DNA from: Escherichia phage vB_EcoM_G53
Reading direction: 5' to 3' (one strand)
Sequence record: MK327943.1
DNA length: 64,000 bases
In this document: positions 11,618 through 62,300 of the stretch, piece by piece
Layout of the letters: each line of letters begins with the position of its first letter
How positions within the stretch are numbered: position 1 is the first letter of the stretch
Position numbers and translations under genes: made by a program
The notes under the pieces: generated by a model
The model's input: the letters and a program-made list of their open reading frames with translations, nothing else
Databases searched by the model: none
What the model was told of the DNA's origin: nothing

Positions 11618-11645
11618 GGGAGACTTCGGTCTCCCATTTTTGGTT
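11618..11645 (+). terminator. Intrinsic terminator: gggagac-UUCG-gtctccc hairpin plus T-tract, after gene 23
   Basis: Perfect 7-bp stem with UUCG tetraloop followed by TTTTTGGTTTT; the convergent minus ORF ends right beside it. Confidence 0.7.
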
Positions 11646-11915: not shown

Positions 11916-11945
11916 TTTGTTTACTCCTCTGTAGTTGATAAGTCT

Positions 11946-11974
11946 ATAGTATCACATACCAAATACGTTGTAAA
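11946..11974 (-). promoter_or_regulatory. Sigma70-type early promoter (TTTACA-N17-TACTAT) for ORF 11646-11915
   Basis: -35/-10 hexamers with 17-bp spacer about 30 nt upstream of the ATG. Confidence 0.55.
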
Positions 11975-11981
11975 CAATCTT

Positions 11982-11989
11982 TATAAATA
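11982..11989 (+). promoter_or_regulatory. Late promoter TATAAATA upstream of gene 24
   Basis: Exact TATAAATA 28 nt upstream of gp24 ATG. Confidence 0.5.
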
Positions 11990-14699: not shown

Positions 14700-14890
14700 T
14701 TCTTCACCTTTTTGTTAATCAAACGTTTACGGTATACAACTTTTTCTTTTGCTTTAAACTTTGACCGAGCTGTCTCGGCTTTAGTCCATAGTAATCCAAC
14801 TTCTTTAGGTTGTAAACCAATTTTTTGAGCAATTTCTACGAATGAAAATCCCGCCTCATGTAATGTATAAACTTCAACTTCAGCTCTCAT
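14696..14890 (-). CDS. Small HTH-containing protein (T4 24.3 position)
   Basis: HTH-like GFSFVEIAQKIGLQPKEV; track start at 14896 is TTG, ATG at 14890 preferred. Confidence 0.45.
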   Translation of the reverse strand: MRAEVEVYTLHEAGFSFVEIAQKIGLQPKEVGLLWTKAETARSKFKAKEKVVYRKRLINKKVKK

Positions 14891-14991: not shown

Positions 14992-16410
14992 TTATGGATA
15001 TGTATAGATGATACCAGTTTCCAAAGCAGTTTTATGGATGATGTATCCATTACGTGATTCTTGAACATCAACTTCCGGATAGTCTTTCATCATCTTCTGA
15101 AGAGTGTAACGATGCAGGTAGTATTTACTATCTGGATCTTCAGTTTTCCAATCTTTACCTTCTTCAGTCATTTTTTGGATTTCATCCATAACCCACCATC
15201 CGCACCAGATGTAAGCTGAAGTACGATGTGGAAGAGGATGAACATAAGGTAATTCACCTTCTGGTTCCGGAGCAACTTTATCAGTTACCTGAACTTGACC
15301 TTCTGCTGTAATAGTTTTGCTATCGTAATCAGTTGCAGTAATAGTTGCAGTAACTTCAATAGTTTGACTTCCAATAGATGAGGTATCAACGGTATATACA
15401 TTAGTTGACCCTTCTACAGGAGAAGAATCTTTCTTCCATGAATACTCGATTTGCGCTTCTTCTGGAGCATCAGTGACATTAGCGGTAAATGTAGCCGAAG
15501 CATCTTGCTGAACGTTAATAGAAGGAGGAGTCAATGTAACCCGTGGATTCATTGTCTTCTTATTAACCGTTAATGATACTTCATTCGAAGTAACTTCCTT
15601 TGCATCATAATCTGTCGCGGTTACTTGGGCTACACATTTAATTCTTTTTACTCCACTTGTAGTCGGAGTATAGCTAAATGTAGAGTTAGTTTCTCCACCA
15701 ACCTGTGAATCATCTACATACCACTGATACGTAGCAGACGCTCCAACCGGTTGAGAAGCTAAGGCAGCAGTAAATTGAACTGGGGTTCCAATTACTCCGG
15801 CTGAAGGACTATTGGGAGTTACTGCCAACGTAGTTGTCTGTGTCTTTTTATTAACAGTCAGTGACACTTCATTAGAAGTAACGCTTAGTGCGTCATAATC
15901 TGTTGCGGTTACTTGAGCCACACACTTAATTCTTTTTACCCCGCTTTCGGCAGGAGTGTAATTGAACGTAGCGTTAGTTGCTTCGCCAACAGGAGAATCG
16001 TCTACATACCATTGATAAGTAGCGTTTGCGCCTGATGGCTGCGAAGCTAAAGCGGCGGTAAATTCAATAGCTGTTCCTATTACTCCAGCGTCAGGGCTAT
16101 TAGGAGTTATAGCCAGAGTAGTTGTCTGAGTTTTATTTTTAACTGTGATAGTTGCAGTAGCTTCTGCTGTTTCAGCTTCAGCGTCTGGAACTGTATTTGC
16201 TGCAACTACTTTAATAGTCTTTTGACCGGCAGGTCCTTTTAGTACATAACTAAAAGTTGCTTCAGCTCCATCTTGTGGAACATCATCCACAGTCCAAGCA
16301 TATGTAATAGTTCCACCTTCAGCCTGACCACTAGGTGTGGCAGTAAACTGCTGGGTCTGTCCTATAACTCCAGTAGGTGTTTTAGGAGTTATATTAACTG
16401 TAAAAGCCAT
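14992..16410 (-). CDS. hoc: Highly immunogenic outer capsid protein Hoc, with four Ig-like repeats
   Basis: 472 aa, repeated beta-rich modules plus C-terminal domain; position between 24.x and inh. Confidence 0.8.
   Translation of the reverse strand: MAFTVNITPKTPTGVIGQTQQFTATPSGQAEGGTITYAWTVDDVPQDGAEATFSYVLKGPAGQKTIKVVAANTVPDAEAETAEATATITVKNKTQTTTLAITPNSPDAGVIGTAIEFTAALASQPSGANATYQWYVDDSPVGEATNATFNYTPAESGVKRIKCVAQVTATDYDALSVTSNEVSLTVNKKTQTTTLAVTPNSPSAGVIGTPVQFTAALASQPVGASATYQWYVDDSQVGGETNSTFSYTPTTSGVKRIKCVAQVTATDYDAKEVTSNEVSLTVNKKTMNPRVTLTPPSINVQQDASATFTANVTDAPEEAQIEYSWKKDSSPVEGSTNVYTVDTSSIGSQTIEVTATITATDYDSKTITAEGQVQVTDKVAPEPEGELPYVHPLPHRTSAYIWCGWWVMDEIQKMTEEGKDWKTEDPDSKYYLHRYTLQKMMKDYPEVDVQESRNGYIIHKTALETGIIYTYP
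15556..16131 (-). repeat. Tandem duplication of a 288-bp (96-codon) Ig-like domain inside hoc
   Basis: Hoc residues 94-189 and 190-285 are about 83% identical (TQTTTLA..SLTVNKK twice). Confidence 0.8.
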
Positions 16411-19138: not shown

Positions 19139-19170
19139 GATTGCCTCCTAAGTTGAAATTACATATCTAT

Positions 19171-19395
19171 TTATACAACTCTCATATGCATATCAATGCC
19201 CATATCTTTAGAATAAAAATATTCATCAAGATATCCGGCAAATTTTCCTTTAATATAAAGGACGTCTTCACCACACGGGTGGTCTGCCAGGATACGAATA
19301 TCCTGACGACGTAGACGATACTTTTCCATTAAGAATTTAATTTCAGTTTCAAATTCTTCGTCATTATTAAAGGCATCTTCAATTGAATAACGCAT
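19171..19395 (-). CDS. uvsY.-1: UvsY.-1-like small protein
   Basis: 74 aa, start overlaps uvsY stop; synteny. Confidence 0.55.
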   Translation of the reverse strand: MRYSIEDAFNNDEEFETEIKFLMEKYRLRRQDIRILADHPCGEDVLYIKGKFAGYLDEYFYSKDMGIDMHMRVV

Positions 19396-27537: not shown

Positions 27538-27566
27538 AACGTTTTCCTCATGTTGTTGATGGGATG

Positions 27567-27595
27567 ATAGTATCACACATCCATGTGTTTGTAAA
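27567..27595 (-). promoter_or_regulatory. Early promoter TTTACA-N17-TACTAT
   Basis: Hexamers with 17-bp spacer directly after alt stop; same cassette as other early promoters here. Confidence 0.5.
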
Positions 27596-29683
27596 CTATC
27601 CTTGGACAAATTTAAACGGAACTGATTCTAAATCCATTAAAGATGCTAACAATTTCAAACCTTTAGGTGCACTAGTTTTTTCTACAAATGAGGCAAAAGA
27701 TACCGGCTCATCTGATTCGATTTCACCTGTCATAGCAACTACCTCGCCTGTTTCCATGAGAACATCACCATCATAAATGACAGCTTCATCTAACTGGTCT
27801 GAGGACATGACTTCAGCTTGAATAAATTTAAGGTTGGATTCTAAACCTGCACCAGTATCAGATGACGCATCTGTAATTTTATTTATCTGCAAGAGAATGC
27901 CTCTAGGCAAAATAATTTCTTGCTCATTAGGGTGATTACTCAACTGTCCTGGATAAATCACGTTAACTTTATGGGCGCCATCAATAGCCCATCCAACGTT
28001 AACACGGATTTGTTCTGGTGCATGCATAGCTGTTCTTACTTGACTCGGAGAAATAGTAACACCTTCGTCATTATTGTCAATGTTAAGCTCTTTGCGAACT
28101 TCTTCAGGAGCAAGTCCAAGGGCAACGTTCTCTTTAAACCCACCGAAAATAATAGGAGCTAGTGAAGTGGAAACATAGTTTCTGAAGTAGAATACCTTAT
28201 TTTTAACCATTGCTTCGTAAATAGGCATTCTGATAGACTGAGCTCTATATAACGTTAGTCCTTCAGGTAAACGGTCTCCATTTAAAAACGCCGAATCAAG
28301 ACCATCAATAGCGCGTTTAACTTCATCTTCATCTGCAACATCGTAAAAATCTGGTTTATAACGACCTAACAACATATTATTGATATCGGTATACGCAGAA
28401 GAGGCATATTCACGAATAGCTCGTTTTTCAGCAACAGAGTATTGTTTAGGGTCCCGATTCATTGTTATATTAAAGGTGCCTCTAGCCGATTCTCGTGCAT
28501 AAGTATACATCACATTAGACAAGAACGCTGATTTACGTTGTTTCCAAGTTCTTTCAGATACTTCAGCTAAAACGTCGTCAGGCAGTTGGAAATTATCACG
28601 TCTAAAATCTTCAAACCATTCGTCTTTAATAGAGTCTGCAATTTCATTTGCAGCTTCAACAAAAGCAGCTAATGCTTTAACAGATGTTGTTTTTTCAGTT
28701 TTAATTTTCTTAGCAAACTTTTCTAAAGATGGCTTAATAACACTACCATAAGAAACTTCATCAGCAAATTTAAAGGATTCATCAATACGATTATAAATCT
28801 TATTTTCGATATCAGCAACTAAAGTGCCTTTTGCTGTGGACGATGCTTGGGCTAGTACGATTTCATATGCTTCAGGAAGTAATTCGGCTGTAGCTGGGCC
28901 ACTAACTTCTTTAGCAGAATTTTCGTATTTCTGGAATAACTCACCTTCTTGTCGGTCAGCTTCTAAAGATTGACTTGCTGCAATAGCACGACGAGAAATT
29001 TTAGTACGAGCAATAACAGGCTTATCTTTACGTTTTTCTTCTACAGCAGCAATAGAACCAGCGATAGCCGTTTCTTTGGTGACCTTTTCGCCAGTCTTTT
29101 TACTCACATAAACTTCGCCAACATCAGAATCTACTTTCGTGTACAACTCTGTGTTAATGTTAGGGATGCCTTTAATATCTTCAATGTTAGCATTTTTACG
29201 AACCATCATCACATAGGTGTGTTTACCTGTGAATTGATACATTGCCGTCAATACTTTAAAACGACCACCGGTTTTAGTAGAAACTAAACGAGCAAGAAGA
29301 GTTTGAAGTTGTTGTCCACGTCCTTTCAATTTCTTGGTAGGGAATCGGAACAGAACTGCATCCATACGAAGAGCTTTAACCTGTTCATATACTGTATTGA
29401 AAATGGTGTTGATTGCATCAATAGGAGCAGGACCAAGGCCATTTTTCAATTCAGCGAGATTACCCTTTTCAGACAGACTCATAATAACAACATGGGCGTA
29501 TTTGTCGCCAAGTTTAACTTGTTTTACAGCGTCGCCTTCGGAAAGGTAAGAGAATAAACGAACTACGATGTTTGTATCGATATCACCAATTTTCCAGACT
29601 TGTGGAACTTTAGCTTTAGGGTTCAAATTGACGACAGGAAGACTGCCTTCAGATTCAAACACTTCATTTAATTGTTCAGACAT
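27596..29683 (-). CDS. alt: Alt ADP-ribosyltransferase
   Basis: 695 aa (T4 Alt 682); position between gene 54 and gene 30. Confidence 0.75.
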   Translation of the reverse strand: MSEQLNEVFESEGSLPVVNLNPKAKVPQVWKIGDIDTNIVVRLFSYLSEGDAVKQVKLGDKYAHVVIMSLSEKGNLAELKNGLGPAPIDAINTIFNTVYEQVKALRMDAVLFRFPTKKLKGRGQQLQTLLARLVSTKTGGRFKVLTAMYQFTGKHTYVMMVRKNANIEDIKGIPNINTELYTKVDSDVGEVYVSKKTGEKVTKETAIAGSIAAVEEKRKDKPVIARTKISRRAIAASQSLEADRQEGELFQKYENSAKEVSGPATAELLPEAYEIVLAQASSTAKGTLVADIENKIYNRIDESFKFADEVSYGSVIKPSLEKFAKKIKTEKTTSVKALAAFVEAANEIADSIKDEWFEDFRRDNFQLPDDVLAEVSERTWKQRKSAFLSNVMYTYARESARGTFNITMNRDPKQYSVAEKRAIREYASSAYTDINNMLLGRYKPDFYDVADEDEVKRAIDGLDSAFLNGDRLPEGLTLYRAQSIRMPIYEAMVKNKVFYFRNYVSTSLAPIIFGGFKENVALGLAPEEVRKELNIDNNDEGVTISPSQVRTAMHAPEQIRVNVGWAIDGAHKVNVIYPGQLSNHPNEQEIILPRGILLQINKITDASSDTGAGLESNLKFIQAEVMSSDQLDEAVIYDGDVLMETGEVVAMTGEIESDEPVSFASFVEKTSAPKGLKLLASLMDLESVPFKFVQG

Positions 29684-32984: not shown

Positions 32985-33186
32985 TTATAATTTCAACATC
33001 AGCCCAATGTCCGTATCCAGGCATACGGTCTTCGATAGATAAATTTCTGTCATTTTTAGGCATTTTAATTGACGTAACGTATGGTTCTAAACGGTTTTCC
33101 GCGTAATATGGAAAAACGTCAGTTACACGATAAGTAACTTCAATCATTTCCGTACCAAACAATTTCTGGATTAATTTATTCAACAT
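32968..33186 (-). CDS. Hypothetical protein
   Basis: 72-aa ORF, ATG start, overlaps neighbours. Confidence 0.4.
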   Translation of the reverse strand: MLNKLIQKLFGTEMIEVTYRVTDVFPYYAENRLEPYVTSIKMPKNDRNLSIEDRMPGYGHWADVEIISVKDV

Positions 33187-33373
33187 GTTTCAACCCTTTA
33201 ATAGGAGATAACTCTTTACCCATACGTATGTCAGAAGTCCCATCAACCCATTGAACAGCATACGCTTCATTGATAATTCCAGCGGCAGTTTTAAATTCTT
33301 TGAGAACTTTAAAAATCATCCCAGGGATTCCAACACCTTTTAATTGGACTGTTTGTGCTATTAAAAATTTCAT
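33176..33373 (-). CDS. Hypothetical protein
   Basis: 65-aa ORF, ATG start. Confidence 0.4.
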   Translation of the reverse strand: MKFLIAQTVQLKGVGIPGMIFKVLKEFKTAAGIINEAYAVQWVDGTSDIRMGKELSPIKGLKHVE

Positions 33374-33397
33374 ATTTTTCCACTTACTAAAGAAATC

Positions 33398-33427
33398 ATT
33401 ATACTCTAATCCGTCCTTGGATGTACA
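33398..33427 (-). promoter_or_regulatory. Weak early-promoter-like element (TGTACA-N18-TATAAT)
   Basis: Perfect -10 TATAAT; poor -35; upstream of ORF 33176-33373. Confidence 0.3.
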
Positions 33428-34042
33428 CTACTTAATGAAATTAATTTCTACCGGATGAACAACAGGTTGAGCAGTGATATATTGAGTAATTGCTTTCATG
33501 ACTAGAGCTTCAGAACCAGGATTTTTCTCAACGAATTCACGTGCTAGGTTATGAGCTTCGAGTTCACTCAATAAACCGGAACGCTGGCATCCACGGTCTT
33601 GAGTACCCTGTTCAGATAAAAGGACTACTACATATTTTTCATCGTCGTAGGGCTTAGCCAGTTGAGCAAATGTTCCTTTACTTCCAAAAGGAGAGTTATG
33701 TCGCCACATCACGCCGTGAGGAGTTTCAACCTTCGTATATTCGTGCGGTCCATTTTTCTTAGTTTCTTGATGTGGAACTTCATAGACCTTAGGGTTAGGA
33801 CATTCAATAAAATGCTCATCTAAATCGGTCGAGAATATTAAAGTAAAACAATTACTGAATTTACCAACACCGGCCTGATAAATTTTACCTTCAGAAGTTC
33901 TAATTTCACAAACTGAGCCGGCATCAGTAACTTCTAAAACTTCAAAAGGCTCAATAAGGTCATATGAGAACATGTTTTTAAGGCGTGGAGTAATATCCCC
34001 ATTTTTAAAATTCATTTTATAAAAAGTATTAACTTTAAACAT
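33428..34042 (-). CDS. Hypothetical 204-aa protein
   Basis: ATG with SD gagga; track start at 34072 is TTG and reads through an upstream hairpin. Confidence 0.5.
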   Translation of the reverse strand: MFKVNTFYKMNFKNGDITPRLKNMFSYDLIEPFEVLEVTDAGSVCEIRTSEGKIYQAGVGKFSNCFTLIFSTDLDEHFIECPNPKVYEVPHQETKKNGPHEYTKVETPHGVMWRHNSPFGSKGTFAQLAKPYDDEKYVVVLLSEQGTQDRGCQRSGLLSELEAHNLAREFVEKNPGSEALVMKAITQYITAQPVVHPVEINFIK

Positions 34043-34054
34043 AATTTCCTCAGT

Positions 34055-34070
34055 GGGAGCCGAAGCTCCC
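34055..34070 (-). promoter_or_regulatory. UUCG-loop RNA hairpin (gggagc-UUCG-gctccc) without U-tract, 12 nt upstream of the SD
   Basis: Perfect 6-bp stem between two ORFs; no terminator U-tract. Confidence 0.4.
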
Positions 34071-34077
34071 AATTAAT

Positions 34078-34443
34078 TTAGATATCAAATTCGTTAAGAA
34101 CTACATCAAAGATTGCTTCGAGATGTTCAGGTTTAGCTCGGTTACTCAGGATATGACGAATCCAAGTTTTAACCAGAAGTTTACGATTAACACCATTCCA
34201 GCAAGGATGAGTACCTAAATCACGCTGACGGAAATCATCATCTAATGCAATTTTAAAATTTGAACCTTCCATCGTGATTGAAACCGTGATACCATTTTCA
34301 AATCGCATATAAACGTAATTAGGAGTCATGCACTGTTCGATTTCACAAACTGTACCGTTTTCGTGTTTCCATAAGCAAATAACTTCAGAAGAACCAGCAA
34401 TACCGTTAGAAACATATTTACGTTCGAAGTTGGTGTAGTTCAT
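34078..34443 (-). CDS. Hypothetical protein
   Basis: 121-aa ORF with promoter motif and SD upstream. Confidence 0.5.
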   Translation of the reverse strand: MNYTNFERKYVSNGIAGSSEVICLWKHENGTVCEIEQCMTPNYVYMRFENGITVSITMEGSNFKIALDDDFRQRDLGTHPCWNGVNRKLLVKTWIRHILSNRAKPEHLEAIFDVVLNEFDI

Positions 34444-34484
34444 TTTATTCTCCAGATGTTTAAGTTGTTTGTTGGTACAGGTCT

Positions 34485-34513
34485 ATAATAACATAACCTG
34501 TACCAAAGTAAAC
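34485..34513 (-). promoter_or_regulatory. Early promoter GTTTAC-N17-TATTAT within inverted repeat ggtacaggt/acctgtacc
   Basis: Hexamers with 17-bp spacer; 9-bp inverted repeat flanks the -10. Confidence 0.5.
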
Positions 34514-34517
34514 TGTT

Positions 34518-34886
34518 TTATGCAACTTTAATCCAATTGTCTAAGTTTAAAACACCTTTGGCTTTCATTTTTTCTATCAGGTTATCTGCTGTAATGCGTC
34601 CATTTTGATACCATGTAACATCTTCAGAGTAACCAGTTTCTTCGTCAACATATGTTTCTGAACGAATTTTACCGGTAATAATAGTTTTTAATTCATATGT
34701 GTCACCTGTGAAAAAGTTTGCTAACACAATTTTCCAAGAGAAATCATCTGAAGGACCTTCAGGGGTCATACAACCTACGAACTCAAATTGCTCTTTGTAT
34801 AACATCCACTGGAATTCTTTAATTTCGATAGCTTTATAACCATCGTGGTCTTTACATTTGATGTATGAGTTCAGATTGATTTTCAT
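34518..34886 (-). CDS. Hypothetical protein
   Basis: 122-aa ORF with promoter motif and SD upstream. Confidence 0.5.
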   Translation of the reverse strand: MKINLNSYIKCKDHDGYKAIEIKEFQWMLYKEQFEFVGCMTPEGPSDDFSWKIVLANFFTGDTYELKTIITGKIRSETYVDEETGYSEDVTWYQNGRITADNLIEKMKAKGVLNLDNWIKVA

Positions 34887-34928
34887 TTTGTTCTCCAGGT
34901 TGTTTTATTGATTAGATGGTACAAGTCT

Positions 34929-34957
34929 ATAGTAACACATCCTACAGGAGAGTAAAC
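34929..34957 (-). promoter_or_regulatory. Early promoter GTTTAC-N17-TACTAT
   Basis: Hexamers with 17-bp spacer upstream of ORF 34518-34886. Confidence 0.5.
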
Positions 34958-34993
34958 ATCTTTTTAAACTTTTTCTGCCCTAAACGCACAAAA

Positions 34994-35011
34994 GGGAGAC
35001 CGAAGTCTCCC
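34994..35011 (-). terminator. Terminator: gggagac-UUCG-gtctccc hairpin plus U-tract (minus sense)
   Basis: Same 18-nt hairpin as after genes 23, 32 and 35; minus sense followed by TTTTGTG. Confidence 0.65.
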
Positions 35012-36563: not shown

Positions 36564-37134
36564 AAAAGTTTCGGATTTGTTCCCAATTCAGAGAACGAAG
36601 ATTATTACGAGAGTACTGAATTACTTCAATACCGGCTTGTTTTAGAATGTCTGCCCAATTTTCAGGAGATCGGTCGTATAATTCTGCATATACAACCTTT
36701 TTAATACCTGACTGTGTAATAGCTTTAGTGCAATCAGGACACGGAGAAAGCGTCGTATATAACGTAGCACCTTCAATAGAATTACCTTTACGAGCTGCAA
36801 ATAAAATTGCATTCAGTTCAGCATGGATTTCATTATTAGCAGACCATGCACTATGAGCGGCCCGATGTTCTTTAGCCAAAACAAAATTATCCACCCGTCC
36901 AAATGCTGTAGTGCCTTCTTTATGCCCAGCAACGATGACCGGGCTTGGTTTATTCTTCAACCAACCGTTTTCGGATGCATGTTCGCAACAGTTTGTACCA
37001 CCTGAAGGAGAGCCATTATAACCTGTAGAAATAATGCGTCCATCTTTTTCAATGACGGCACCAACTTTCCATGAACAACATTTTGATTCTTGAGAAATCA
37101 AATAAGCAATTTGAAGATATGTGCTAGCTTTCAT
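36553..37134 (-). CDS. cd: dCMP deaminase
   Basis: 193 aa as T4 Cd; zinc motifs HAELNAI and PCPDC. Confidence 0.9.
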   Translation of the reverse strand: MKASTYLQIAYLISQESKCCSWKVGAVIEKDGRIISTGYNGSPSGGTNCCEHASENGWLKNKPSPVIVAGHKEGTTAFGRVDNFVLAKEHRAAHSAWSANNEIHAELNAILFAARKGNSIEGATLYTTLSPCPDCTKAITQSGIKKVVYAELYDRSPENWADILKQAGIEVIQYSRNNLRSLNWEQIRNFCGE

Positions 37135-38181
37135 TATTGAACCTTATTAATATAAGTTAACAGCTCTTTAGTTTGTTCCCAACTGATGCACGCATCGGTA
37201 ACGGAAACGCCATAGGACATATTATCAGAAATTTTTTGATTTCCTTCATGTAGGAATGATTCTATCATAATTCCTTTGACCAAATCATTAGCTGCTAAAT
37301 TTTTACCAATACCAATTTGATTGCTATAATGCCCATCAGCGTTTGCATGGCTACAGTCAACCATTACATAATGATTCAGACCTACTGCACTTGCTTTGTT
37401 AGAAGCTTCTTGAATATCAGAAGAATGATAGTTGACCTACTGCACTTGCTTTGTTAGAAGCTTCTTGAATATCAGAAGAATGATAGTTCGGGCCGTTGGT
37501 CCCGCCACGCAATACGATATGCGTATTCTGATTACCTTCAGCTTCAACAATGCCTACAGTACCATCGACGTCCATACCCATATACCGATGAGGCCAGGCG
37601 GCACTATACATCGCGTCTGTAGCTACTTTAATAGAACCATTGGTTGCGTTCTTGAAGCCTACGCACATCGGTAGACCTGAAGCAATTTCACGATGTGTCT
37701 GACTTTCAGTCGTACGGGCGCCAATAGCAACCCATGAGAAAATACCAGAAAGATACTTAATCGTGAATGGGTCTAATACTTCAGTTGCTAATGGAAGTCC
37801 CATACGTAGAAGTTTACGACACAATGTTCGTGCAACTATAAGACCGTGGTTCATATCAAAACTTCCGTCAAGATATGGATCATTTACAAGACCTTTCCAA
37901 CCTACGGTAGTTCGAGGCTTTTCAAAATAAACGCGCATCACTAACAGAACATTAGGAAGACGAGTTTGAAGTTCAGCCAGACGTTTGCCGTATTCAACAG
38001 CAGCAATAGGGTCATGAATTGAACAAGGACCTACAACAATAAGTTTGCGTGGGTCTTCACCGTTCATAATCGAATTAACTTGTTCGCGATGAGAAGCCAC
38101 TTGTGATGCGTAAGCTTCCGACAAAGGAATAATCTCAGCCAGTTCTTTTGGAGAAATAAGTTTTCTGACGACAGGTAACAT
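37134..38181 (-). pseudogene. DAHP synthase (AroG/AroF-type 3-deoxy-7-phosphoheptulonate synthase), frameshifted by a 55-bp tandem duplication
   Basis: Track ORFs 37417-38181 and 37134-37364 both resemble E. coli AroG (GPCSIHDP, VMRVYFEKPRTTVGWKG, GARTTESQ, DCSHAN); they fuse in frame if one repeat copy is removed. Confidence 0.8.
37379..37488. repeat. Perfect 55-bp direct tandem duplication (2 copies)
   Basis: 37379-37433 equals 37434-37488 base for base; flanking bases differ; 55 is not a multiple of 3. Confidence 0.9.
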
Positions 38182-38301
38182 AACAATCCTTAGGAGATAT
38201 AAACAGATTCTGATTCAACAATACCTTTAACCGGATTAGACAGGCTAAGTTGGTAGTGCTCAGATTTATGACCATTCTCGATAGTAATGAGATAGCTCTC
38301 A

Positions 38302-38538: not shown

Positions 38539-38566
38539 TTCTATTTCCTCATTTGTTGGTAGAGTT

Positions 38567-38595
38567 ATAGTATCACAACTCCACCATGTTGTAAA
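38567..38595 (-). promoter_or_regulatory. Early promoter TTTACA-N17-TACTAT
   Basis: Hexamers with 17-bp spacer upstream of ORF 38302-38538. Confidence 0.5.
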
Positions 38596-38598
38596 CCA

Positions 38599-38874
38599 TT
38601 AAATTGCTTTGCATTCAATTTTTTGTGTACCGAAATTGATATCACATTGGATAACTAAATCGCCGTCAAGATCAAATACCACTATGACGTGTGCAGACCC
38701 AGGGAGAAGAGTAATAGCAATAGAATCTACTTGGTCTGGGAGCAAAGCGTTAAGTACATGAGTTACTTGAGCATGAACTCTGAGTTCGGCCGCATTATCA
38801 AGCACTTCAAACATATTATTAGCAATAATCTGGCTGAAGACTACCTTTACAATTTCAGAATAAGTTGGGAACAT
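38599..38874 (-). CDS. Hypothetical protein
   Basis: 91-aa ORF, ATG start. Confidence 0.45.
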   Translation of the reverse strand: MFPTYSEIVKVVFSQIIANNMFEVLDNAAELRVHAQVTHVLNALLPDQVDSIAITLLPGSAHVIVVFDLDGDLVIQCDINFGTQKIECKAI

Positions 38875-40665: not shown

Positions 40666-40693
40666 TTAGATTTCCTCAATTATCCATAGGAGC

Positions 40694-40722
40694 ATTATAC
40701 TCTGCTCCCGAGAGTTTGTAAA
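40694..40722 (-). promoter_or_regulatory. Early promoter TTTACA-N17-TATAAT
   Basis: Consensus hexamers, 17-bp spacer, upstream of ORF 40366-40665. Confidence 0.55.
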
Positions 40723-40947
40723 CTATTTTACTAAAGATTCAATATACTCATGAAGAGCTTTAGTCGCTACTGCCCACTTATTCTGATATTCATTTTTCAG
40801 ATTAGCACGAGACTGAACTAACAAGCGGTCATTAGTCGGAGGCAAAGATTCTAATCGTTGAATCTGGCGTCCATAAATCATAGCCGCCATTTCAGATTCA
40901 TAGATAAGCCCTTTAATGTATTCATGCTGTTCTTTAGTCATTGGCAT
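40723..40947 (-). CDS. Hypothetical protein
   Basis: 74-aa ORF, ATG start. Confidence 0.4.
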   Translation of the reverse strand: MPMTKEQHEYIKGLIYESEMAAMIYGRQIQRLESLPPTNDRLLVQSRANLKNEYQNKWAVATKALHEYIESLVK

Positions 40948-42069: not shown

Positions 42070-42098
42070 AATTTTCTCCTCGTGTTGTTGATAAACCC

Positions 42099-42127
42099 AT
42101 AGTATCACCATCCTTGGTGTTTGTAAA
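42099..42127 (-). promoter_or_regulatory. Early promoter TTTACA-N17-TACTAT
   Basis: Hexamers with 17-bp spacer between rnlA stop and alc start. Confidence 0.5.
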
Positions 42128-42130
42128 CCG

Positions 42131-43264
<1,134 letters not shown>

Positions 43265-43282
43265 TCAGTTAGTTTTTTTTAA

Positions 43283-43311
43283 ATTGTACCACAATCCTTG
43301 TGGTATGTAAA
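43283..43311 (-). promoter_or_regulatory. Early promoter TTTACA-N17-TACAAT
   Basis: Hexamers with 17-bp spacer upstream of rnlA. Confidence 0.5.
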
Positions 43312-43722
43312 CTACTTTTTCTTATGTTGGATATTCCAAGGCGGGTTGAACTTTTTGATAAAAAGTGGTTCTTCAAGGTCCATTGTTGCGATGGTCATTG
43401 AACCAAGTTCGTTGGTGACTGAAAGGTCAAAACATTGGCGGGCCCAGAATTCAACCTTTTTGCCTTGCATTAAGGCATCCAAAATCATAAGTGATTTTCT
43501 TGAATCTGAAGTCTGGTCTTTTCGATTTATGGCTGTTCGATAATAGTTAATGCGTTTCTTTAAATTCTTGGTTTTACCAATATACACGAGTTCGTCATCT
43601 ATAGCAATAGCATATATGACATTTTTCTTATTAGGGACATCAACTGTTTTAATTGTTGCATCTTCTAATAGCTCCAATTCTGTATATTTAATAAAGGAAT
43701 ATTCGGCGGCGATATCTTTCAT
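43312..43722 (-). CDS. denA: Endonuclease II (DenA)
   Basis: 136 aa, near-identical to T4 DenA as recalled. Confidence 0.85.
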   Translation of the reverse strand: MKDIAAEYSFIKYTELELLEDATIKTVDVPNKKNVIYAIAIDDELVYIGKTKNLKKRINYYRTAINRKDQTSDSRKSLMILDALMQGKKVEFWARQCFDLSVTNELGSMTIATMDLEEPLFIKKFNPPWNIQHKKK

Positions 43723-47238: not shown

Positions 47239-47534
47239 ATGTCCTCTATATTAAATTCGTCTTTAAAAAGTTTATTAACCACTAGAGCTATTATATCACC
47301 ATGACAGGCTTTTGGTTTACATGTGCATCCCAGACGCATACCACGTAAAGGTTCTAGATGAGCTTTTGTGATTTCTCCACACTTAATTCTCTTAATAAAA
47401 TCCTTTTTGAAAAGCTCAATAGCTTCTTCTCGGGAAGAGGCATCCTTGCCTACATAATTTCCCCAGAATGTGCCACGATGAATATTAACATCAAAATCGG
47501 ATTTATATTTATTCACAACGCGGCACATTTTCAT
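47229..47534 (-). CDS. Hypothetical protein (nrdA.1 position)
   Basis: 101-aa ORF, ATG start. Confidence 0.45.
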   Translation of the reverse strand: MKMCRVVNKYKSDFDVNIHRGTFWGNYVGKDASSREEAIELFKKDFIKRIKCGEITKAHLEPLRGMRLGCTCKPKACHGDIIALVVNKLFKDEFNIEDICK

Positions 47535-47788
47535 TACATGTCCTCTGCAATAATTTCTTCGTATTCTTTAGGAGTCAAGACCGTGATATTAAAATAAACC
47601 AACGGTTCTTTTTCTATACCGAATCCACCACAGAATTCACGATATTCATAAATTCGTTCATGTGAATAACAAATGAATCGTTCACCTTTAACTGTGATTT
47701 CACTATTTGGTGAAGGGATATCCAGTTCACTTGGATTTTTCATTTCAAAAATTGTGGTGCCATATGAATTAATAAAACGTAAAATCAT
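47534..47788 (-). CDS. Hypothetical protein
   Basis: 84 aa from ATG one nt after td stop; track version (to 47956) starts at GTG inside td. Confidence 0.4.
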   Translation of the reverse strand: MILRFINSYGTTIFEMKNPSELDIPSPNSEITVKGERFICYSHERIYEYREFCGGFGIEKEPLVYFNITVLTPKEYEEIIAEDM

Positions 47789-49234: not shown

Positions 49235-49475
49235 TTTTAAGTCCTTTAATAACTTTTTGGATTTGTGATTTAGACGAAACTAGTTCTGTCTGAATTTCCA
49301 AACCATCGGTTTGGTCAAATGTTGTAACACAAACACGGGGTTTTGTTGTGTATCGCCCAGACAAATCAAATGCGTCACCAATGAATTCGGCTAAATCCGG
49401 ATGGTCTAAATTAACTGAAGTATAAACTTCATATCCTACATCAGTGCCTTGAGAGTATTCAACAACAACATTCAT
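49227..49475 (-). CDS. Hypothetical protein
   Basis: 82-aa ORF, ATG start. Confidence 0.4.
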   Translation of the reverse strand: MNVVVEYSQGTDVGYEVYTSVNLDHPDLAEFIGDAFDLSGRYTTKPRVCVTTFDQTDGLEIQTELVSSKSQIQKVIKGLKNA

Positions 49476-49477
49476 AA

Positions 49478-49726
49478 TTATTTCCTCAGATTTTTCTTAA
49501 CAACTTTCCAATCAGCTTTAAACGATTCAACATCAGAGTGGTGAATCCAGAATCCTGCACTTTCACCATCTTCGTAGAGTGGACATCCATCACATTCTTC
49601 GTTCCAACCAATTTCACGTAAAGCTTCTTCAGCTTGTTCAAGGAGTTCAGCGTCTTTACCGACGATGTTGAAGTACCATTTACCTCTAACTTCAGAATCT
49701 TTGATGCTCTGTCGTTGCAATCTCAT
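49478..49726 (-). CDS. Hypothetical protein
   Basis: 82 aa from ATG with SD aaggag; track start at 49789 is GTG inside the promoter. Confidence 0.4.
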   Translation of the reverse strand: MRLQRQSIKDSEVRGKWYFNIVGKDAELLEQAEEALREIGWNEECDGCPLYEDGESAGFWIHHSDVESFKADWKVVKKNLRK

Positions 49727-49759
49727 TTTATTCTCCTTCACTTTTGATTTGATAGGGCT

Positions 49760-49788
49760 ACTATAACATAACCCTATCTGATTGTACA
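49760..49788 (-). promoter_or_regulatory. Early-promoter-like element TGTACA-N17-TATAGT
   Basis: Hexamers with 17-bp spacer, about 35 nt upstream of ATG at 49726. Confidence 0.4.
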
Positions 49789-50181
49789 CTACTTTTTAAA
49801 AGTTTTTTGCAAAAGTTCGATGATTTCGTCGACGTTGGTTTCATCTACGATACAATGTATTTTTGTTACACCTAAAGTTATACCTTCGTTAGTAGGTTGA
49901 GGCTTTACTAAATCTACCTCAGTAAAGTATTTGAACTCGTCAGGATAAATCTCAAAATAAGTTTCAATTTCACCACCGCCAGAACATACAGTACCATCTT
50001 CCATAGTTACACTTACTACGTTTGACGTATCGCTATCATAATCAGGTTCCATTCCGTTTACAACAAAACTAGGCCCGTGGAGTTCAATCAATTTTAACAT
50101 CTTAGCGTTATTGTGTGGTGCTTCTTGAACAAAGTCATCTTTAAATAAAGGGTTAATGATATAAGATTTTCCGATTTCCAT
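49789..50181 (-). CDS. Hypothetical protein
   Basis: 130-aa ORF with promoter motif and SD upstream. Confidence 0.45.
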   Translation of the reverse strand: MEIGKSYIINPLFKDDFVQEAPHNNAKMLKLIELHGPSFVVNGMEPDYDSDTSNVVSVTMEDGTVCSGGGEIETYFEIYPDEFKYFTEVDLVKPQPTNEGITLGVTKIHCIVDETNVDEIIELLQKTFKK

Positions 50182-50210
50182 TTTGATTTCCTCATGTTGT
50201 TGATAGGTCT

Positions 50211-50239
50211 ATACTAACACATCCAGGGAAGAAGTAAAC
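50211..50239 (-). promoter_or_regulatory. Early promoter GTTTAC-N17-TAGTAT
   Basis: Hexamers with 17-bp spacer upstream of ORF 49789-50181. Confidence 0.45.
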
Positions 50240-50270
50240 AACTTTTTCGGCAATTTACAGATACTCAAAA

Positions 50271-50288
50271 GGGAGACCGAAGTCTCCC
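50271..50288 (-). terminator. Gene 32 terminator: gggagac-UUCG-gtctccc plus U-tract
   Basis: Perfect hairpin about 7 nt past gp32 stop, then TTTTGAG on minus sense. Confidence 0.65.
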
Positions 50289-53474: not shown

Positions 53475-53506
53475 ATGAACCTCTTGTTCAGTTAGTCAAC
53501 TTGTCT

Positions 53507-53536
53507 ATAGTAACACACTCATTTGAAAGCGTAAAC
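53507..53536 (-). promoter_or_regulatory. Early promoter GTTTAC-N18-TACTAT for rnh
   Basis: Hexamers about 33 nt upstream of rnh ATG. Confidence 0.45.
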
Positions 53537-53539
53537 TGG

Positions 53540-53547
53540 TATAAATA
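53540..53547 (+). promoter_or_regulatory. Late promoter TATAAATA upstream of gene 34
   Basis: Exact TATAAATA 31 nt upstream of gp34 ATG. Confidence 0.5.
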
Positions 53548-53577
53548 AGTATTATTGAAACAATAAAGGAAAAACGA

Positions 53578-58594: not shown

Positions 58595-58618
58595 GGGAGA
58601 CTTCGGTCTCCCATTTTT
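58595..58618 (+). terminator. Terminator: gggagac-UUCG-gtctccc plus T-tract after gene 35
   Basis: Same 18-nt hairpin as after gene 23, followed by ATTTTTG. Confidence 0.65.
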
Positions 58619-59325: not shown

Positions 59326-62300
59326 ATGGCTACATTAAAACAGATACAATTTAAAAGAAGCAAAGTGGCAGGAGTTAATCCTACTGCAGCACAATTAGCC
59401 GAAGGCGAATTAGCGATAAACTTAAAAGACCGAACTCTTTTTACTAAAGATGACCTCGGTAATATTATTAGCCTAGGCTTTGCTAAGGGCGGGCAAGTTG
59501 ACGGCAACGTTACTATTAACGGACTTTTGAGATTAAATGGCGATTATGTACAAACAGGCGGAATGACTGTAAACGGACCTATTGGTTCTACTGATGGCGT
59601 AACTGCAAAAGTTTTCAGATCTACACAGGGTTCATTTTATACAAGAGCAACAAACGATACTGCAAATGCCCATCTTTGGTTTGAAAATACAAATGGCTCA
59701 GAACGTGGTGTTTTATATTCAAAACCGCAGTCTGAAAATGAAGGCGTAATTACAATGCGTGTTCGTCAAGGAACCGCTGCGGGAGCTCAAAATTCAGAAT
59801 TTCATTTCATTTCTACCGATGGCGGTATCTTCCAGGCACGCAAATTAACTGCTTTAACTTCTATTAGTACACCAACTATTAGTGTTAATTTAATTAATCA
59901 TGATTCTAAATCATTTGGACAATACGATTCGCAGTCATTAGTTCAATATGTTTATCCTGGAACCGGTGAAACAAACGGAATCAATTACCTTCGTAAAGTT
60001 CGAGCTAAATCAGGCGGAACCATTTACCATGAAATCGCTTCTTCGCAAACCGGAAAAAGTGATGAAATTTCTTGGTGGACTGGAAATACAGCCGTTAATA
60101 AACAAATGGGTCTTCGTAATGATGGGTCTTTAGTATTACGACGCTCGCTCGCAATTGGTACAATTACAACAGATGAAAACATTAATAACTACGGCTCCGC
60201 TGGAGCAATGGGCGAATGTTATATAGTTATCGGTGATGCATCAACAGGTTTATCATACAAAAAAACTGGAGTATATGATTTAGTTGCTAGTGGTCTTTCT
60301 TTAGCATCTATTACTCCTGATAGTTTCCGTAGTACCCGTAAAGCGATTTTTGGGCGCTCAGAAGACCAAGGTACAACATGGATTATGCCTGGAACGAACG
60401 CTGCATTTTTATCGGTTCAAACACAGGCTGATGAAAACACTGCTGGAGACGGTCAAACCCATATTGGATATAATTCTGGCGGAAAAATGAACCACTATTT
60501 CCGTGGTAAAGGCAAAACTAATATTAATACTCAGGAAGGTATGGAAGTTAATCCGGGTATTTTGAAATTGGTAACTGGCTCTAATAATGTAATGTTTTAT
60601 GCTGATGGCGGTATTACATCTGTTAAGCAGCTTTCAATATATAATGGCATATATTTAGCAGCTAATAATTCTACTGCTGGGCTAACATTCGCTCCAACTA
60701 CTACAATTGATGGCACTAAGCAAATTTTGTGGGAAGGCGGTACTCGTGCTGGTCAGAATAAAAGCTATGTAACTGTTAAAGCATGGGGTAATTCATTTAA
60801 CGCATCCGGCGATCGTAATCGTGAAACTGTATTTGAAGTTAGTGACGGGCAAGGATATTATTTTTATTCACAGCGTGTGGCTCCAAGTGGCTCTGAAACT
60901 ACTGGGCCTGTTGTAACCCAGTTCAATGGACAAGTTAATGCTAGAGGAAGTATTATTACTGACGGAAGTCTTAGAGTTAACGGATTAAGTACATTATCCG
61001 GACAAGTTACTATGGATAACGGGCTTGTTTTATCCGGCGGTGGTTCTATTACCGGTCAAGTTAAAATCGGTAATACCGCAGATGCTTTCCGTATTTACAA
61101 TGCTGAATATGGAGCTATTTTCCGTCGTTCTGAAGCGTCTTTGCATATTATACCTACACTTAAAGATGCAGGTGAAAGTGGTGGTATTTCTAACCTTCGC
61201 CCATTGAGTGTTTCTCTTAACAACGGTATGGTTCAAATGCGCCATTCTGTTACGTTAGGTGATGATGGTGCTGGCGGTAATATGGTGACCGTTGATAATG
61301 ATAATAAACTTGTTGTTATAACTAGTCATAGTCGCATTTCTCCTAATTACCGTATGCAATTAGGACAATCGGCATATATCGACGCTGAATGTACTGATAC
61401 TGCACGACCTGCTGGAGCCGGTTCTTTTGCTTCACAAAATAATGAAAACGTTCGTGCTCCGTTCTATATGAATATTGATAGAACAGATACAAGCACTTAT
61501 GTTCCTATTGTGAAACAAAGATACGTTCAAAATAATAGTTGTTATTCTATTGGTACTTTAATTAATGGTGGTAACTTTAGAGTTCATTATCACGAAGGTG
61601 GTGACGGCGTTTCTACTGGTGCTATTATAAAGGATCTTGGATGGGAATTTAATAAAAACGGTGATTTTTATTCTCCTGGTAAATTAGGCGCTGGTAATGT
61701 TCGTATTGGTACTGATGGTAATATCACCGGTGGTTCTGGCAACTTTGCTAACTTGAATACCACAATAAATAACCTTAAGACGGATATTGTCTCAAGTTAT
61801 CCTATTGGTGCTCCGATTCCTTGGCCTACTGATACACCTCCTGAAGGTTATGCCATAATGGAAGGTCAAACATTTGATGCTGGCTTGTATCCTAAGTTAG
61901 CTGCGGTGTATCCTTCCGGCGCTCTGCCTGATATGCGCGGTCAAACTATCAAGGGTAAACCATCTGGGCGTGCTGTATTAAGTACAGAAGCAGATGGTGT
62001 TAAGTCACATAGCCATAGTGCAAGTGCATCAAGCACAGATTTGGGTACTAAAAACACATCAAGTTTTGATTATGGTAGCAAAACGACTTCAAGCTTTGAT
62101 TATGGTACTAAGACCAGTAATACCACTGGTAACCATAACCATACAGTGAGTGGTAATACTAGTTCCGCAGGAGCTCACCAACACGCGCGTTCAGGTCCTC
62201 AGGTCACTGCTGCATGGGCAGACGATTTGTTTAGAGACGGGGTTACTACGATAGGTGCAAACTCATATGCTAAAATTAACTCAGGTATCACTGGTTCGAC

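Follow-up and report, generated by a model that had tools for sequence, protein, structure and literature searches.

The 30.x locus and its promoters

The interval 33398-35011 forms part of a 64,000-nucleotide stretch of Escherichia phage vB_EcoM_G53 (record MK327943.1), which was analysed as a whole and is referred to here as the window. Read along the minus strand, the interval contains the end of gene 30.9, a terminator, a promoter, gene 30.8, a second promoter, gene 30.7, a hairpin, an orphan open reading frame (ORF) of 204 amino acids (ORF204) and a third promoter, which precedes gene 30.5. The three promoters belong to a set of 13 similar sites in the window. Judged from their sequence, these sites are very probably immediate-early sigma-70 promoters of the T-even type, joined to a leader, a Shine-Dalgarno (SD) sequence and often a hairpin, and doubling as patches of homology for recombination. 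Earlier papers already describe both the promoters and the part they play as recombination linkers, the composite elements under the name promoter-early stem-loop (PeSL); the finding is correct but ordinary.

The source phage is a Mosigvirus, that is, an RB69-like T-even coliphage. With Escherichia phages FL18 and WFK the interval shares 99.8% identity; WFK is classified in Straboviridae, Tevenvirinae, Mosigvirus (the genus of RB69). The interval also matches several hundred T-even phages. The minus strand of the window follows the T4-map order rnh-dsbA-33-59-32-frd-td-nrdA-nrdB-denA-rnlA-alc-pseT-cd-31-rIII-30.x-30-alt, and the plus strand carries late genes. A whole-window Rfam search at gathering thresholds gave zero matches.

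Detection of the repeated sites

The first-pass annotation of this DNA had listed ten minus-strand sites with a shared promoter motif (11946, 27567, 34485, 34929, 38567, 40694, 42099, 43283, 50211 and 53507), and all ten were found at those positions. The motif is commoner than in shuffled sequence: TTTAC-N16-18-TANTAT occurs 11 times in the window, compared to a mean of 1.27 in 100 dinucleotide shuffles, none of which reaches 11. Ten of the 11 matches are on the minus strand, and the single plus-strand match, at 59440, is probably due to chance.

A two-block weight matrix was also trained on 18 published RB69 early promoters (Nolan et al. 2006), taken only from outside the window-homologous region because circularity was to be avoided. 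With a cut-off of at least 12 bits, the matrix finds 13 distinct sites in the window, all of them on the minus strand, and a mean of 0.55 in dinucleotide shuffles. Three of these cassettes were absent from the earlier list, namely 49753-49803 and 33391-33442, both with a GTGTAC -35 element, and 14781-14831. The coordinate at which the noted interval starts, 33398, coincides with the final base of the -10 in the promoter at 33391-33442. A repeat search of the window independently recovers the cassettes as families D4, D7, D8 and D10, and the near-identical leader that had been seen at several sites is real: CAACAACATGAGGA is present exactly at 27545 and 50189, and with one mismatch at 42077.

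Anatomy and class of the promoters

The -35 element is GTTTAC in 11 of the 13 sites and GTGTAC in two, and every site has a -10 element of the form TAnnAT or TATAGT. The spacer measures 17 bp in nine sites, 16 bp in three and 18 bp in one, and TGn precedes the -10 in 10 of the 13. The 21 nt upstream of the -35 have a mean AT content of 77%, compared to 62% for the window, with frequent AAAAAG runs. In eight of the 13 sites, the stop codon of the upstream gene lies no more than 4 nt from the -35, and the cassette therefore fills the entire intergenic gap of 54-74 nt. The distance from the predicted start to the SD-ATG is 18-36 nt for 12 of the 13 sites; all 13 lie on the early-gene strand and none on the late-gene plus strand. 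It had been proposed that several longest-ORF calls run through their own promoter; this holds for three of 12 cases, in which starts at 49789, 42111 and 27609 reach back past the -10, and not beyond those three.

The RB69 reference set consisted of 58 predicted early promoters, with coordinates from Additional file 3 of Nolan et al. 2006 (PMC1524935) mapped onto RB69. Twelve of the 13 sites are orthologous to RB69 early promoters, including all ten sites of the earlier list as well as 14788 and 49753. The inter-site spacing of the RB69 promoters (PMC1524935) is the same in the window, and two of the 30.x promoters likewise have "1 bp del" spacers. The window differs from RB69 in having an extra promoter, 33391-33442, before 30.5, brought in with the ORF204 module, and in lacking a weak Pe:136969-type call at the threshold used. 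The 51-nt RB69 promoter model of Nolan and colleagues ends at +1, which puts leaders and stems outside its description.

In T4, homologous promoters precede 30.7, 30.8 and cd.2, the last being named Pe133295 in the T4 GenBank record, and these three include the same GGTACAGG/CCTGTACC repeat as the window. The T4 early promoters, treated by Wilkens and Ruger and by Miller 2003, have been described as "uber" promoters with UP, -35, TGn and -10 elements (Hinton 2010, PMC2988021), and the window sites share with them the GTTTAC -35, TGn, the TAnnAT -10 and an A-rich UP element. Compared with those of T4, the window sites favor TACTAT over TATAAT as the -10, have a C-rich stretch immediately ahead of the start and carry different leaders. 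Early-promoter activity has been measured in T4, whereas in the window phage it is predicted from sequence. The consensus of the window motif is the same as that published for T-even PeSL promoters, TTTACW-N17-TAYWAT (Comeau et al. 2014, PMC4122927), and the layout agrees as well: the AT-rich 5' part contains the stop codon of the preceding gene, and the 3' end is formed by the SD and ATG. The sites thus carry all of the sequence hallmarks of a T4-type early promoter: the -35, the -10 with its spacing and TGn, the UP element, co-orientation with early genes, and orthology. Coordinates of the cassettes and of the 30.x genes are collected in Table 1.

Table 1. Early-promoter cassettes of the window and features of the 30.x cluster, listed along the minus strand
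Feature	Coordinates	Strand	Details
Early promoter before rnh (ATG 53474)	53500..53550	-	RB69 ortholog Pe:149309
Early promoter before frd.2 (ATG 50181)	50204..50253	-	RB69 ortholog Pe:146013; UUCG terminator upstream at 50271-50288
Early promoter before frd.1 (ATG 49726)	49753..49803	-	RB69 ortholog Pe:145300; 36.8 bits; RegB-type SD; 10-bp stem brackets -10
Early promoter before rnlA (ATG 43255)	43276..43326	-	RB69 ortholog Pe:139277; 8-bp spacer stem
Early promoter before alc (ATG 42069)	42092..42142	-	RB69 ortholog Pe:138093; 5-bp spacer stem CACCA/TGGTG
Early promoter (ATG 40665)	40687..40737	-	RB69 ortholog Pe:136687; 6-bp inverted repeat GGAGCA/TGCTCC flanks -10
Early promoter before cd.2 (ATG 38538)	38560..38610	-	RB69 ortholog Pe:134561, T4 Pe133295; 10-bp stem around -10, z -3.8
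Intrinsic terminator after 30.9	34990..35011	-	GGGAGAC-UUCG-GUCUCCC then UUUU; ~20 nt upstream of P30.8 UP region; RNA fold -14.1 kcal/mol, z -4.4; labelled terminator in WFK annotation
Early promoter P30.8	34922..34971	-	-35 GTTTAC 34952-34957, 16-bp spacer, TGn, -10 TACTAT 34929-34934; predicted start near 34922; 28.7 bits; RB69 ortholog Pe:132117; T4 homolog present
30.8 leader	34887..34921	-	~36 nt from predicted start to ATG; SD inside GGAGAACAAAA
Gene 30.8 (122 aa)	34518..34886	-	Pfam PF06019, E 7e-44; variable allele between two cassettes
Early promoter P30.7	34478..34527	-	-35 GTTTAC 34508-34513, -10 TATTAT 34485-34490; RB69 ortholog Pe:131670; 37.9 bits; 9-bp stem brackets -10
30.7 leader	34444..34477	-	~35 nt from predicted start to ATG; RegB-type SD GGAGAATAAAA
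Gene 30.7 (121 aa)	34078..34443	-	Pfam PF06919, E 1e-51
Intercistronic RNA hairpin	34055..34070	-	GGGAGC-UUCG-GCUCCC directly before next ORF's SD/ATG; without U-run; fold -13.1 kcal/mol, z -2.9; conserved linker, mosaic junction
ORF204, orphan	33428..34042	-	Present in ~113 Mosigvirus records; no Pfam family match
Third early promoter, before 30.5	33391..33442	-	-35 GTGTAC, 18-bp spacer, -10 TATAAT 33398-33403; 29.9 bits; generic sigma-70 scan 10/12
Gene 30.5 (65 aa)	33176..33373	-	64% identity to T4 gp30.5, E 7e-29
Early promoter before alt.-3 (ATG 27537)	27560..27610	-	RB69 ortholog Pe:125323; spacer inverted repeat ACACAT/ATGTGT
Early-promoter match inside gene 24.3 coding sequence	14781..14831	-	RB69 ortholog Pe:112451; no SD-ATG within 80 nt
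Early promoter before small ORF (ATG 11915)	11939..11989	-	RB69 ortholog Pe:109605

Stem-loops in and beside the cassettes

Stem formation was assessed by folding the segment from -35 to +12 with DNA parameters and comparing it with random windows. For the 13 window sites together with 18 RB69 sites, z averages -1.41 and lies below -1.64 in 42% of the sites versus 9% of the controls (Mann-Whitney p 1.6e-4). The 57 minus-strand RB69 sites give a similar picture, with z below -1.64 in 47% versus 12% of controls (p 3.4e-7). Folds of single cassettes give z values from -3.8 to -5.4. Within the window, a stem-loop accompanies eight of the 13 cassettes, and the other five are without a convincing stem. 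Six of the stems are embedded (cassettes are named here by their upstream end): those of 34527 and 49803 bracket the -10, those of 38610 and 40737 lie around it, and those of 43326 and 42142 occupy the spacer. The remaining two cassettes, 34971 and 50253, lie 20-40 nt downstream of an identical terminator, GGGAGAC-UUCG-GUCUCCC-UUUU; among the cassette stems, only these two UUCG hairpins have a U-run.

The 9-bp inverted repeat that had been noticed around one -10 is that of P30.7, at 34474-34504, and a stem is present in at least five other cassettes as well. The P30.7 arms, GGTACAGGT at 34496-34504 and ACCTGTACC at 34474-34482, bracket the -10, and the 3' arm exceeds the 50-nt promoter model by 4 nt. 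The repeat folds as RNA at -17.9 kcal/mol (z -4.0), and with DNA parameters its z is -6.0. The arms are kept in T4 and in 14 of 15 related loci, apart from one G.U-compatible change in locus L015, whereas the sequences of the loop and leader vary. In L021, the most distant of the 15 loci, a different inverted repeat is found at P30.7. The frd.1 promoter has a 10-bp inverted repeat, GATAGGGTTA/TAGCCCTATC, on both sides of its -10 (fold z -5.4). In the cd.2 promoter stem, the differences between T4 and the window are all G.U-compatible, and some compensatory changes are found among paralogous cassettes of RB69.

The evidence that pairing in the embedded stems is under selection is mixed. A comparison of RNA- with DNA-level stems (G.T versus A.C mismatches in the near-perfect inverted repeats of 31 cassettes) yielded eight events and no signal. 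A scan of IMG/VR for P30.7-type promoters with free arms found that the T-even orthologs all keep the same arms, which is conservation and no covariation. No convincing pairing of a spacer with an SD was found inside the window, the sole candidate being a weak 5-bp TCTCC/GGAGA match at P30.8. Such pairing is seen elsewhere: over 9-11 bp, the spacer pairs with the gene's own SD in RB69 Pe:7443, Pe:20537 and Pe:61376 (L004, L005), and also upstream of 30.7 in L021. A compensatory change, from G-C to A-T, distinguishes Pe:7443 from Pe:61376. In these cassettes the SD would be masked in read-through transcripts only.

The placement of the stems, in the -35/-10 interval, over the -10 or upstream, corresponds to the subclasses of PeSL that Arbiol et al. 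2010 (PMC2839356) distinguish, and the AGGA...TCCT cores match the AGNA-loop-TCNT stems of T-even PeSLs (Comeau et al. 2014, PMC4122927). The PeSL stems of RB49 are poly-G/poly-C, and none of that kind occurs in the window. The order of parts is also that of the published PeSLs (PMC2839356, PMC4122927): an AT-rich stretch containing the upstream stop, then the early promoter, accompanied in eight of the 13 cassettes by a stem-loop, and finally the SD with the ATG. The resemblance to T4-type PeSL cassettes that was first suspected from the motif is therefore supported by consensus, layout, stem enrichment and some mosaic junctions (see below). The cassettes differ from typical PeSLs in that about half of them have a stem, and in that several precede the conserved genes rnh, rnlA and alc rather than orphan ORFs; the early description of them as leaders of small accessory ORFs is correct for only some of the set.

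Ten IMG/VR contigs (L023, L025, L027, L030, L037, L040, L053, L055, L071 and L084) form an unrelated group with many copies of a closely similar cassette, TTGTTTACTTTTCAAACCAGTGTGTTATTATAATAGTATAAGGTTTGAA..AAGGAAACATACCATG, in which an 8-bp inverted repeat, TTCAAACC/GGTTTGAA, brackets the -10. From these sequences, PeSL-like architecture seems to extend past the T4-like phages.

The UUCG hairpins of the window are separate elements, found beside only two promoters and one promoterless linker. The 18-nt hairpin GGGAGACTTCGGTCTCCC occurs in four identical copies, compared to 0 expected, at 11618-11635 and 58595-58612 on the plus strand and at 34994-35011 and 50271-50288 on the minus strand. Each copy is oriented to give a UUCG loop in the transcript, and a T-run follows in the three cases whose flank was read (after 30.9, after gene 32 and at 11618). 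The promoterless hairpin after 30.7 behaves differently from the embedded stems in its covariation: across six T-even variants 100% of the cells are paired, compensatory changes occur in three of the six pairs, and none of 500 shuffles reaches the score. Its loop alternates between UUCG and GAAA among the variants. This clear covariation points to an RNA-level element, which by its sequence would be of the classical T4 C(UUCG)G type. Intercistronic C(UUCG)G hairpins of T4 were reportedly described by Tuerk et al. in 1988; the likeness consists of GGGAGAC-UUCG-GUCUCCC, with its four copies, and GGGAGC-UUCG-GCUCCC after 30.7.

Leaders and predicted RegB sites

The strong-site consensus for RegB/S1 in T4 early mRNAs is GG*AGRAYARAA, as Durand 2006 is summarised in PMC3014915. 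The SDs of 30.8, 30.7 and frd.1 match 11 of 11 positions of GGAGRAYARAA, the exact match in the 30.8 leader being GGAGAACAAAA. Four matches to the consensus occur in the window, where 0.26 are expected, and three of them are these cassette SDs. From the match in the three leaders, one would predict that the early mRNAs of 30.8, 30.7 and frd.1 are rapidly inactivated in function by RegB cleavage. The RB69-type RegB has been reported as diverged (PMC3014915); the window SDs are like the RegB/S1 sites of T4 by sequence, and cleavage at them is a prediction.

Recombination and mosaic junctions

Some of the differences between related genomes fall exactly on the cassettes. In RB69, RB69ORF245c is flanked by two leader copies, ATCAACAAATGAG(A)GGAAA..AAAATG. 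The window is without this ORF, the break lies exactly at the leader repeat, and the promoter joins frd.2 through a single leader, that of the frd.2 cassette (50204..50253). RB69ORF245c is carried by 10 of 181 phage records; elsewhere the homology ends at the leader.

PeSLs are found preferentially in hyperplastic regions, beside variable or orphan ORFs. The 30.x cluster agrees with this, having three cassettes within 1.6 kb beside the variable 30.8 alleles and ORF204, but other cassettes precede the conserved rnh, rnlA, alc and cd.2. Across the 15 related loci, four points recur as breaks in the homology with the window: 34512/34513, at the P30.7 -35; about 34870, just inside 30.8; 34036, the ATG that follows the hairpin linker; and 33373, the ATG that follows the third promoter. 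Around 30.8, homology of other T-even loci to the window stops near 34870 and restarts at 34512, and the P30.8 and P30.7 cassettes delimit the divergent 30.8 alleles. Compared with L008, locus L011 shows 44% identity upstream of the P30.7 -35, 100% from promoter to ATG and 97% in 30.7, and its upstream part is 91% identical to L017; judged from these alignments, L011 is a clean recombinant at P30.7.

ORF204 and its downstream promoter stand where T4 and RB69 have gene 30.6, in the stretch that runs from two codons past the 30.6 ATG up to the 30.5 ATG. RB69 has no promoter at this locus; the core of the 33391-33442 promoter is near-identical to RB69 Pe:8387, at another locus, and a -10 with leader, 42 nt in all, also matches Dhakavirus genomes upstream of cef.

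A tandem duplication of 30.7 and 30.8, proposed to explain their similar cassettes, was unsupported (BLASTP E 0.2). The two proteins do share E..CMTP, at residues 34-41 of gp30.7 (121 aa) and 35-42 of gp30.8 (122 aa), and on this resemblance may be remote paralogs.

Proposed mechanism

As very strong sigma-70 promoters, the sites would be recognized by host RNA polymerase as soon as the DNA enters the cell, and the injected Alt ADP-ribosyltransferase may, by analogy with T4, favor them further. Transcription would begin about 7 nt past the -10, and the C/A-rich leader of 18-36 nt would bring a strong SD to the ATG. The embedded hairpins are situated mostly upstream of their own predicted start, and would thus form only in RNA that reads through from upstream. 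In such read-through RNA, they most likely attenuate, process or stabilize the transcript, and could in this way insulate neighboring units. The same 50-100 nt are repeated many times in one orientation and would therefore also serve as homology patches for phage recombination. According to the published PeSL model, ORFs between such patches can be swapped, deleted or inserted.

A more speculative proposal, which we regard as rather improbable, is that the embedded hairpins are RNA switches reporting the promoter of origin of a transcript. Of the two arms, the 5' one precedes the cassette's own start and the 3' one falls at that start (or, in some RB69 paralogs, on the SD); only read-through RNA would therefore fold, to be attenuated, processed or masked from translation, with locally initiated RNA staying open. 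A mechanism of this kind is known for the T4 late genes e, soc and 49. If true, each small ORF would be expressed essentially only from its own promoter, and the T4 late-gene mechanism would be generalized to the whole early-promoter set.

Alternative explanations

Several observations weigh against the interpretation of the sites as promoter cassettes that double as recombination patches. The promoter assignment rests on sequence and orthology. That the motif is a chance pattern, or belongs to another class such as MotA-dependent middle or late promoters, is scarcely credible: its sole support is the plus-strand match at 59440, which itself looks like chance, and this reading is refuted by the enrichment (11 matches where 1.27 are expected, and no shuffle at 11), by the strand bias of all 13 matrix sites, and by the -35 region, which is GTTTAC and not a MotA box at -30. 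For the MotA box (a/t)(a/t)(a/t)TGCTTtA, no TGCTT was found at -30 in any of the 13 sites, and the late-promoter core TATAAATA is absent from them. A more serious challenge, which we consider possible although the less probable reading, is that the sites are early promoters only. The likeness past the -35 and -10 would then reflect selection for polymerase binding and translation, and the cassettes would not be special mobile modules, since any conserved intergenic linker would serve for recombination. Five of the seven indels relative to RB69 indeed lie at ordinary junctions (SD/ATG, or stop/start such as TAATG overlaps) with short direct repeats of 9-14 bp unrelated to promoters, and the promoterless hairpin-SD linker at 34036-34070 is also a recurrent junction. 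WFK is the closest relative, and its differences from the window consist of an intron/homing-endonuclease gene, replacement by another homing-endonuclease gene, a hoc-region difference and a tandem duplication; the indels are driven by homing endonucleases, and the idea that cassettes drive recent indels relative to WFK was rejected, these differences being of other kinds. BLAST segments tend to end at conserved islands, so that junctions seem to fall on cassettes more often than they really do, and the extra consensus regions of T4 early promoters are thought to optimize polymerase contacts (Hinton 2010, PMC2988021). Selection on promoter function does not readily explain, however, why non-consensus spacers are near-identical at unrelated loci (33391-33442 and RB69 Pe:8387, and the paralogous families A to D of RB69 sites), why the 42-nt stretch matches another locus in another genus, or why cassettes are the exact position of both the ORF245c indel and the L011 crossover. 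In addition, experiments with RB49 and phi1 have demonstrated mini-circles formed between PeSLs (PMC2839356). The suggestion that cassettes mark the ends of indels in relatives accordingly holds for RB69ORF245c, L011 and the 30.8 alleles, and fails for five of the seven RB69 indels and for all of those relative to WFK, which lie elsewhere. As with published PeSLs (PMC2839356, PMC4122927), ORF indels and allele swaps between cassettes are seen in the window, yet most window indels are elsewhere; the cassettes are one class of recombination linker among several. Lambdoid morons (Hendrix and colleagues; discussed in PMC2839356) are comparable in that a small accessory gene has its own promoter and terminator, as here, but they are without a flanking repeated conserved cassette and their movement is not ascribed to homology of regulatory elements (PMC2839356).

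The hairpin part of the reading meets its own difficulties. Just six of the 13 window cassettes have a convincing embedded stem, and these stems are not canonical intrinsic terminators, because they have no U-runs. The hairpin enrichment stems in part from paralogous families with common ancestry, many stems falling into a few of them. In the largest, a nine-member family with stems flanking the -10, covariation is weak and not significant: pairing is seen in 93% of cells, but the score is equalled in 83 of 500 shuffles and the compensatory events amount in effect to one; the stems of this family are conserved mostly by descent. It could thus be that the inverted repeats are not functional RNA at all, acting instead at the DNA level (in cruciform extrusion or promoter melting) or arising as neutral by-products of templated mutation or shared ancestry. 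The stems bracket the -10 and the discriminator, where DNA sequence itself affects open-complex formation. We nevertheless think this account somewhat unlikely. By our own estimate, the enrichment survives the collapsing of families, leaving roughly 14 distinct stem types against 12% of controls; pairing in variants is mostly kept through G.U-compatible changes; and the P30.7 arms are fixed while their surroundings diverge. Three RB69 cassettes pair the spacer with the SD, with the compensatory change between Pe:7443 and Pe:61376 described above, and a PeSL stem lowered expression of a downstream lacZ in RB49 (PMC2839356).

Other features of the window

A gene for an AroF/G-type DAHP synthase lies at 37134-38181 on the minus strand (Pfam PF00793; E 7e-83 to PDB 6agm, a Tyr-sensitive enzyme); this entry enzyme of the shikimate pathway is unusual for a T-even phage. 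The gene sits in a 1150-bp insertion (flanks 37137-38287) between cd.2 and cd that is absent from RB69 and is flanked by a 13-bp direct repeat, ATAATGARAGCTA, duplicating the start of cd. The gene is split into fragments of 254 and 76 amino acids by the frameshift that a perfect tandem duplication of 55 bp introduces (37379-37433 and 37434-37488). When one copy is removed, a 330-aa ORF is restored, identical to the intact WFK gene at 328 of 331 aligned positions (330 residues and the stop), so that what is seen is either a pseudogene of very recent origin or an artefact of assembly.

At 47240-47547 on the minus strand, a cysteine-rich ORF of about 100 amino acids is flanked by GAGGACATNT repeats; our guess is that it is nrdA.1-like. 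The corresponding slot in RB69 (143185-143284, in the nrdA.2/nrdA gap) holds a middle-promoter-like GCTTCA-N12-TATAAT and a terminator hairpin, and in WFK it holds a homing-endonuclease gene, so that one intergenic slot has three occupants. A 240-bp insertion relative to RB69 at 49238-49478 (minus strand) places a small ORF between frd.1 and frd. Its junctions are inside the SD-ATG spacer; the new ORF uses the old SD of frd, and frd gets a new one. In the hoc region, 15553-16128 (plus-strand coordinates) contains a 288-nt tandem repeat with 76% identity, in a segment that differs from RB69 and is missing in WFK. At 19149-19179, between uvsY.-1 and uvsY.-2, about 100 bp present in RB69 (116786-116888) and WFK is absent from the window; the absent stretch contains an ORF of 29 codons with GATGGGGT(T)A(T)AAATA repeats on both sides, beside a late-promoter-like TATAAATA.

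Implications for T-even genomes

The differences in gene content of the window call for caution, since they come mostly from translation-initiation junctions or homing-endonuclease genes and not from promoter cassettes. The main use of the result is in annotation: the 13 cassettes settle where translation truly begins in at least three ORFs whose longest frame runs through its own promoter, and they delimit the early transcription units of this Mosigvirus. They also explain the mosaic of the 30.x cluster, with its divergent 30.8 alleles and ORF204 in place of 30.6, and the window adds a further T-even genus to the published PeSL picture.

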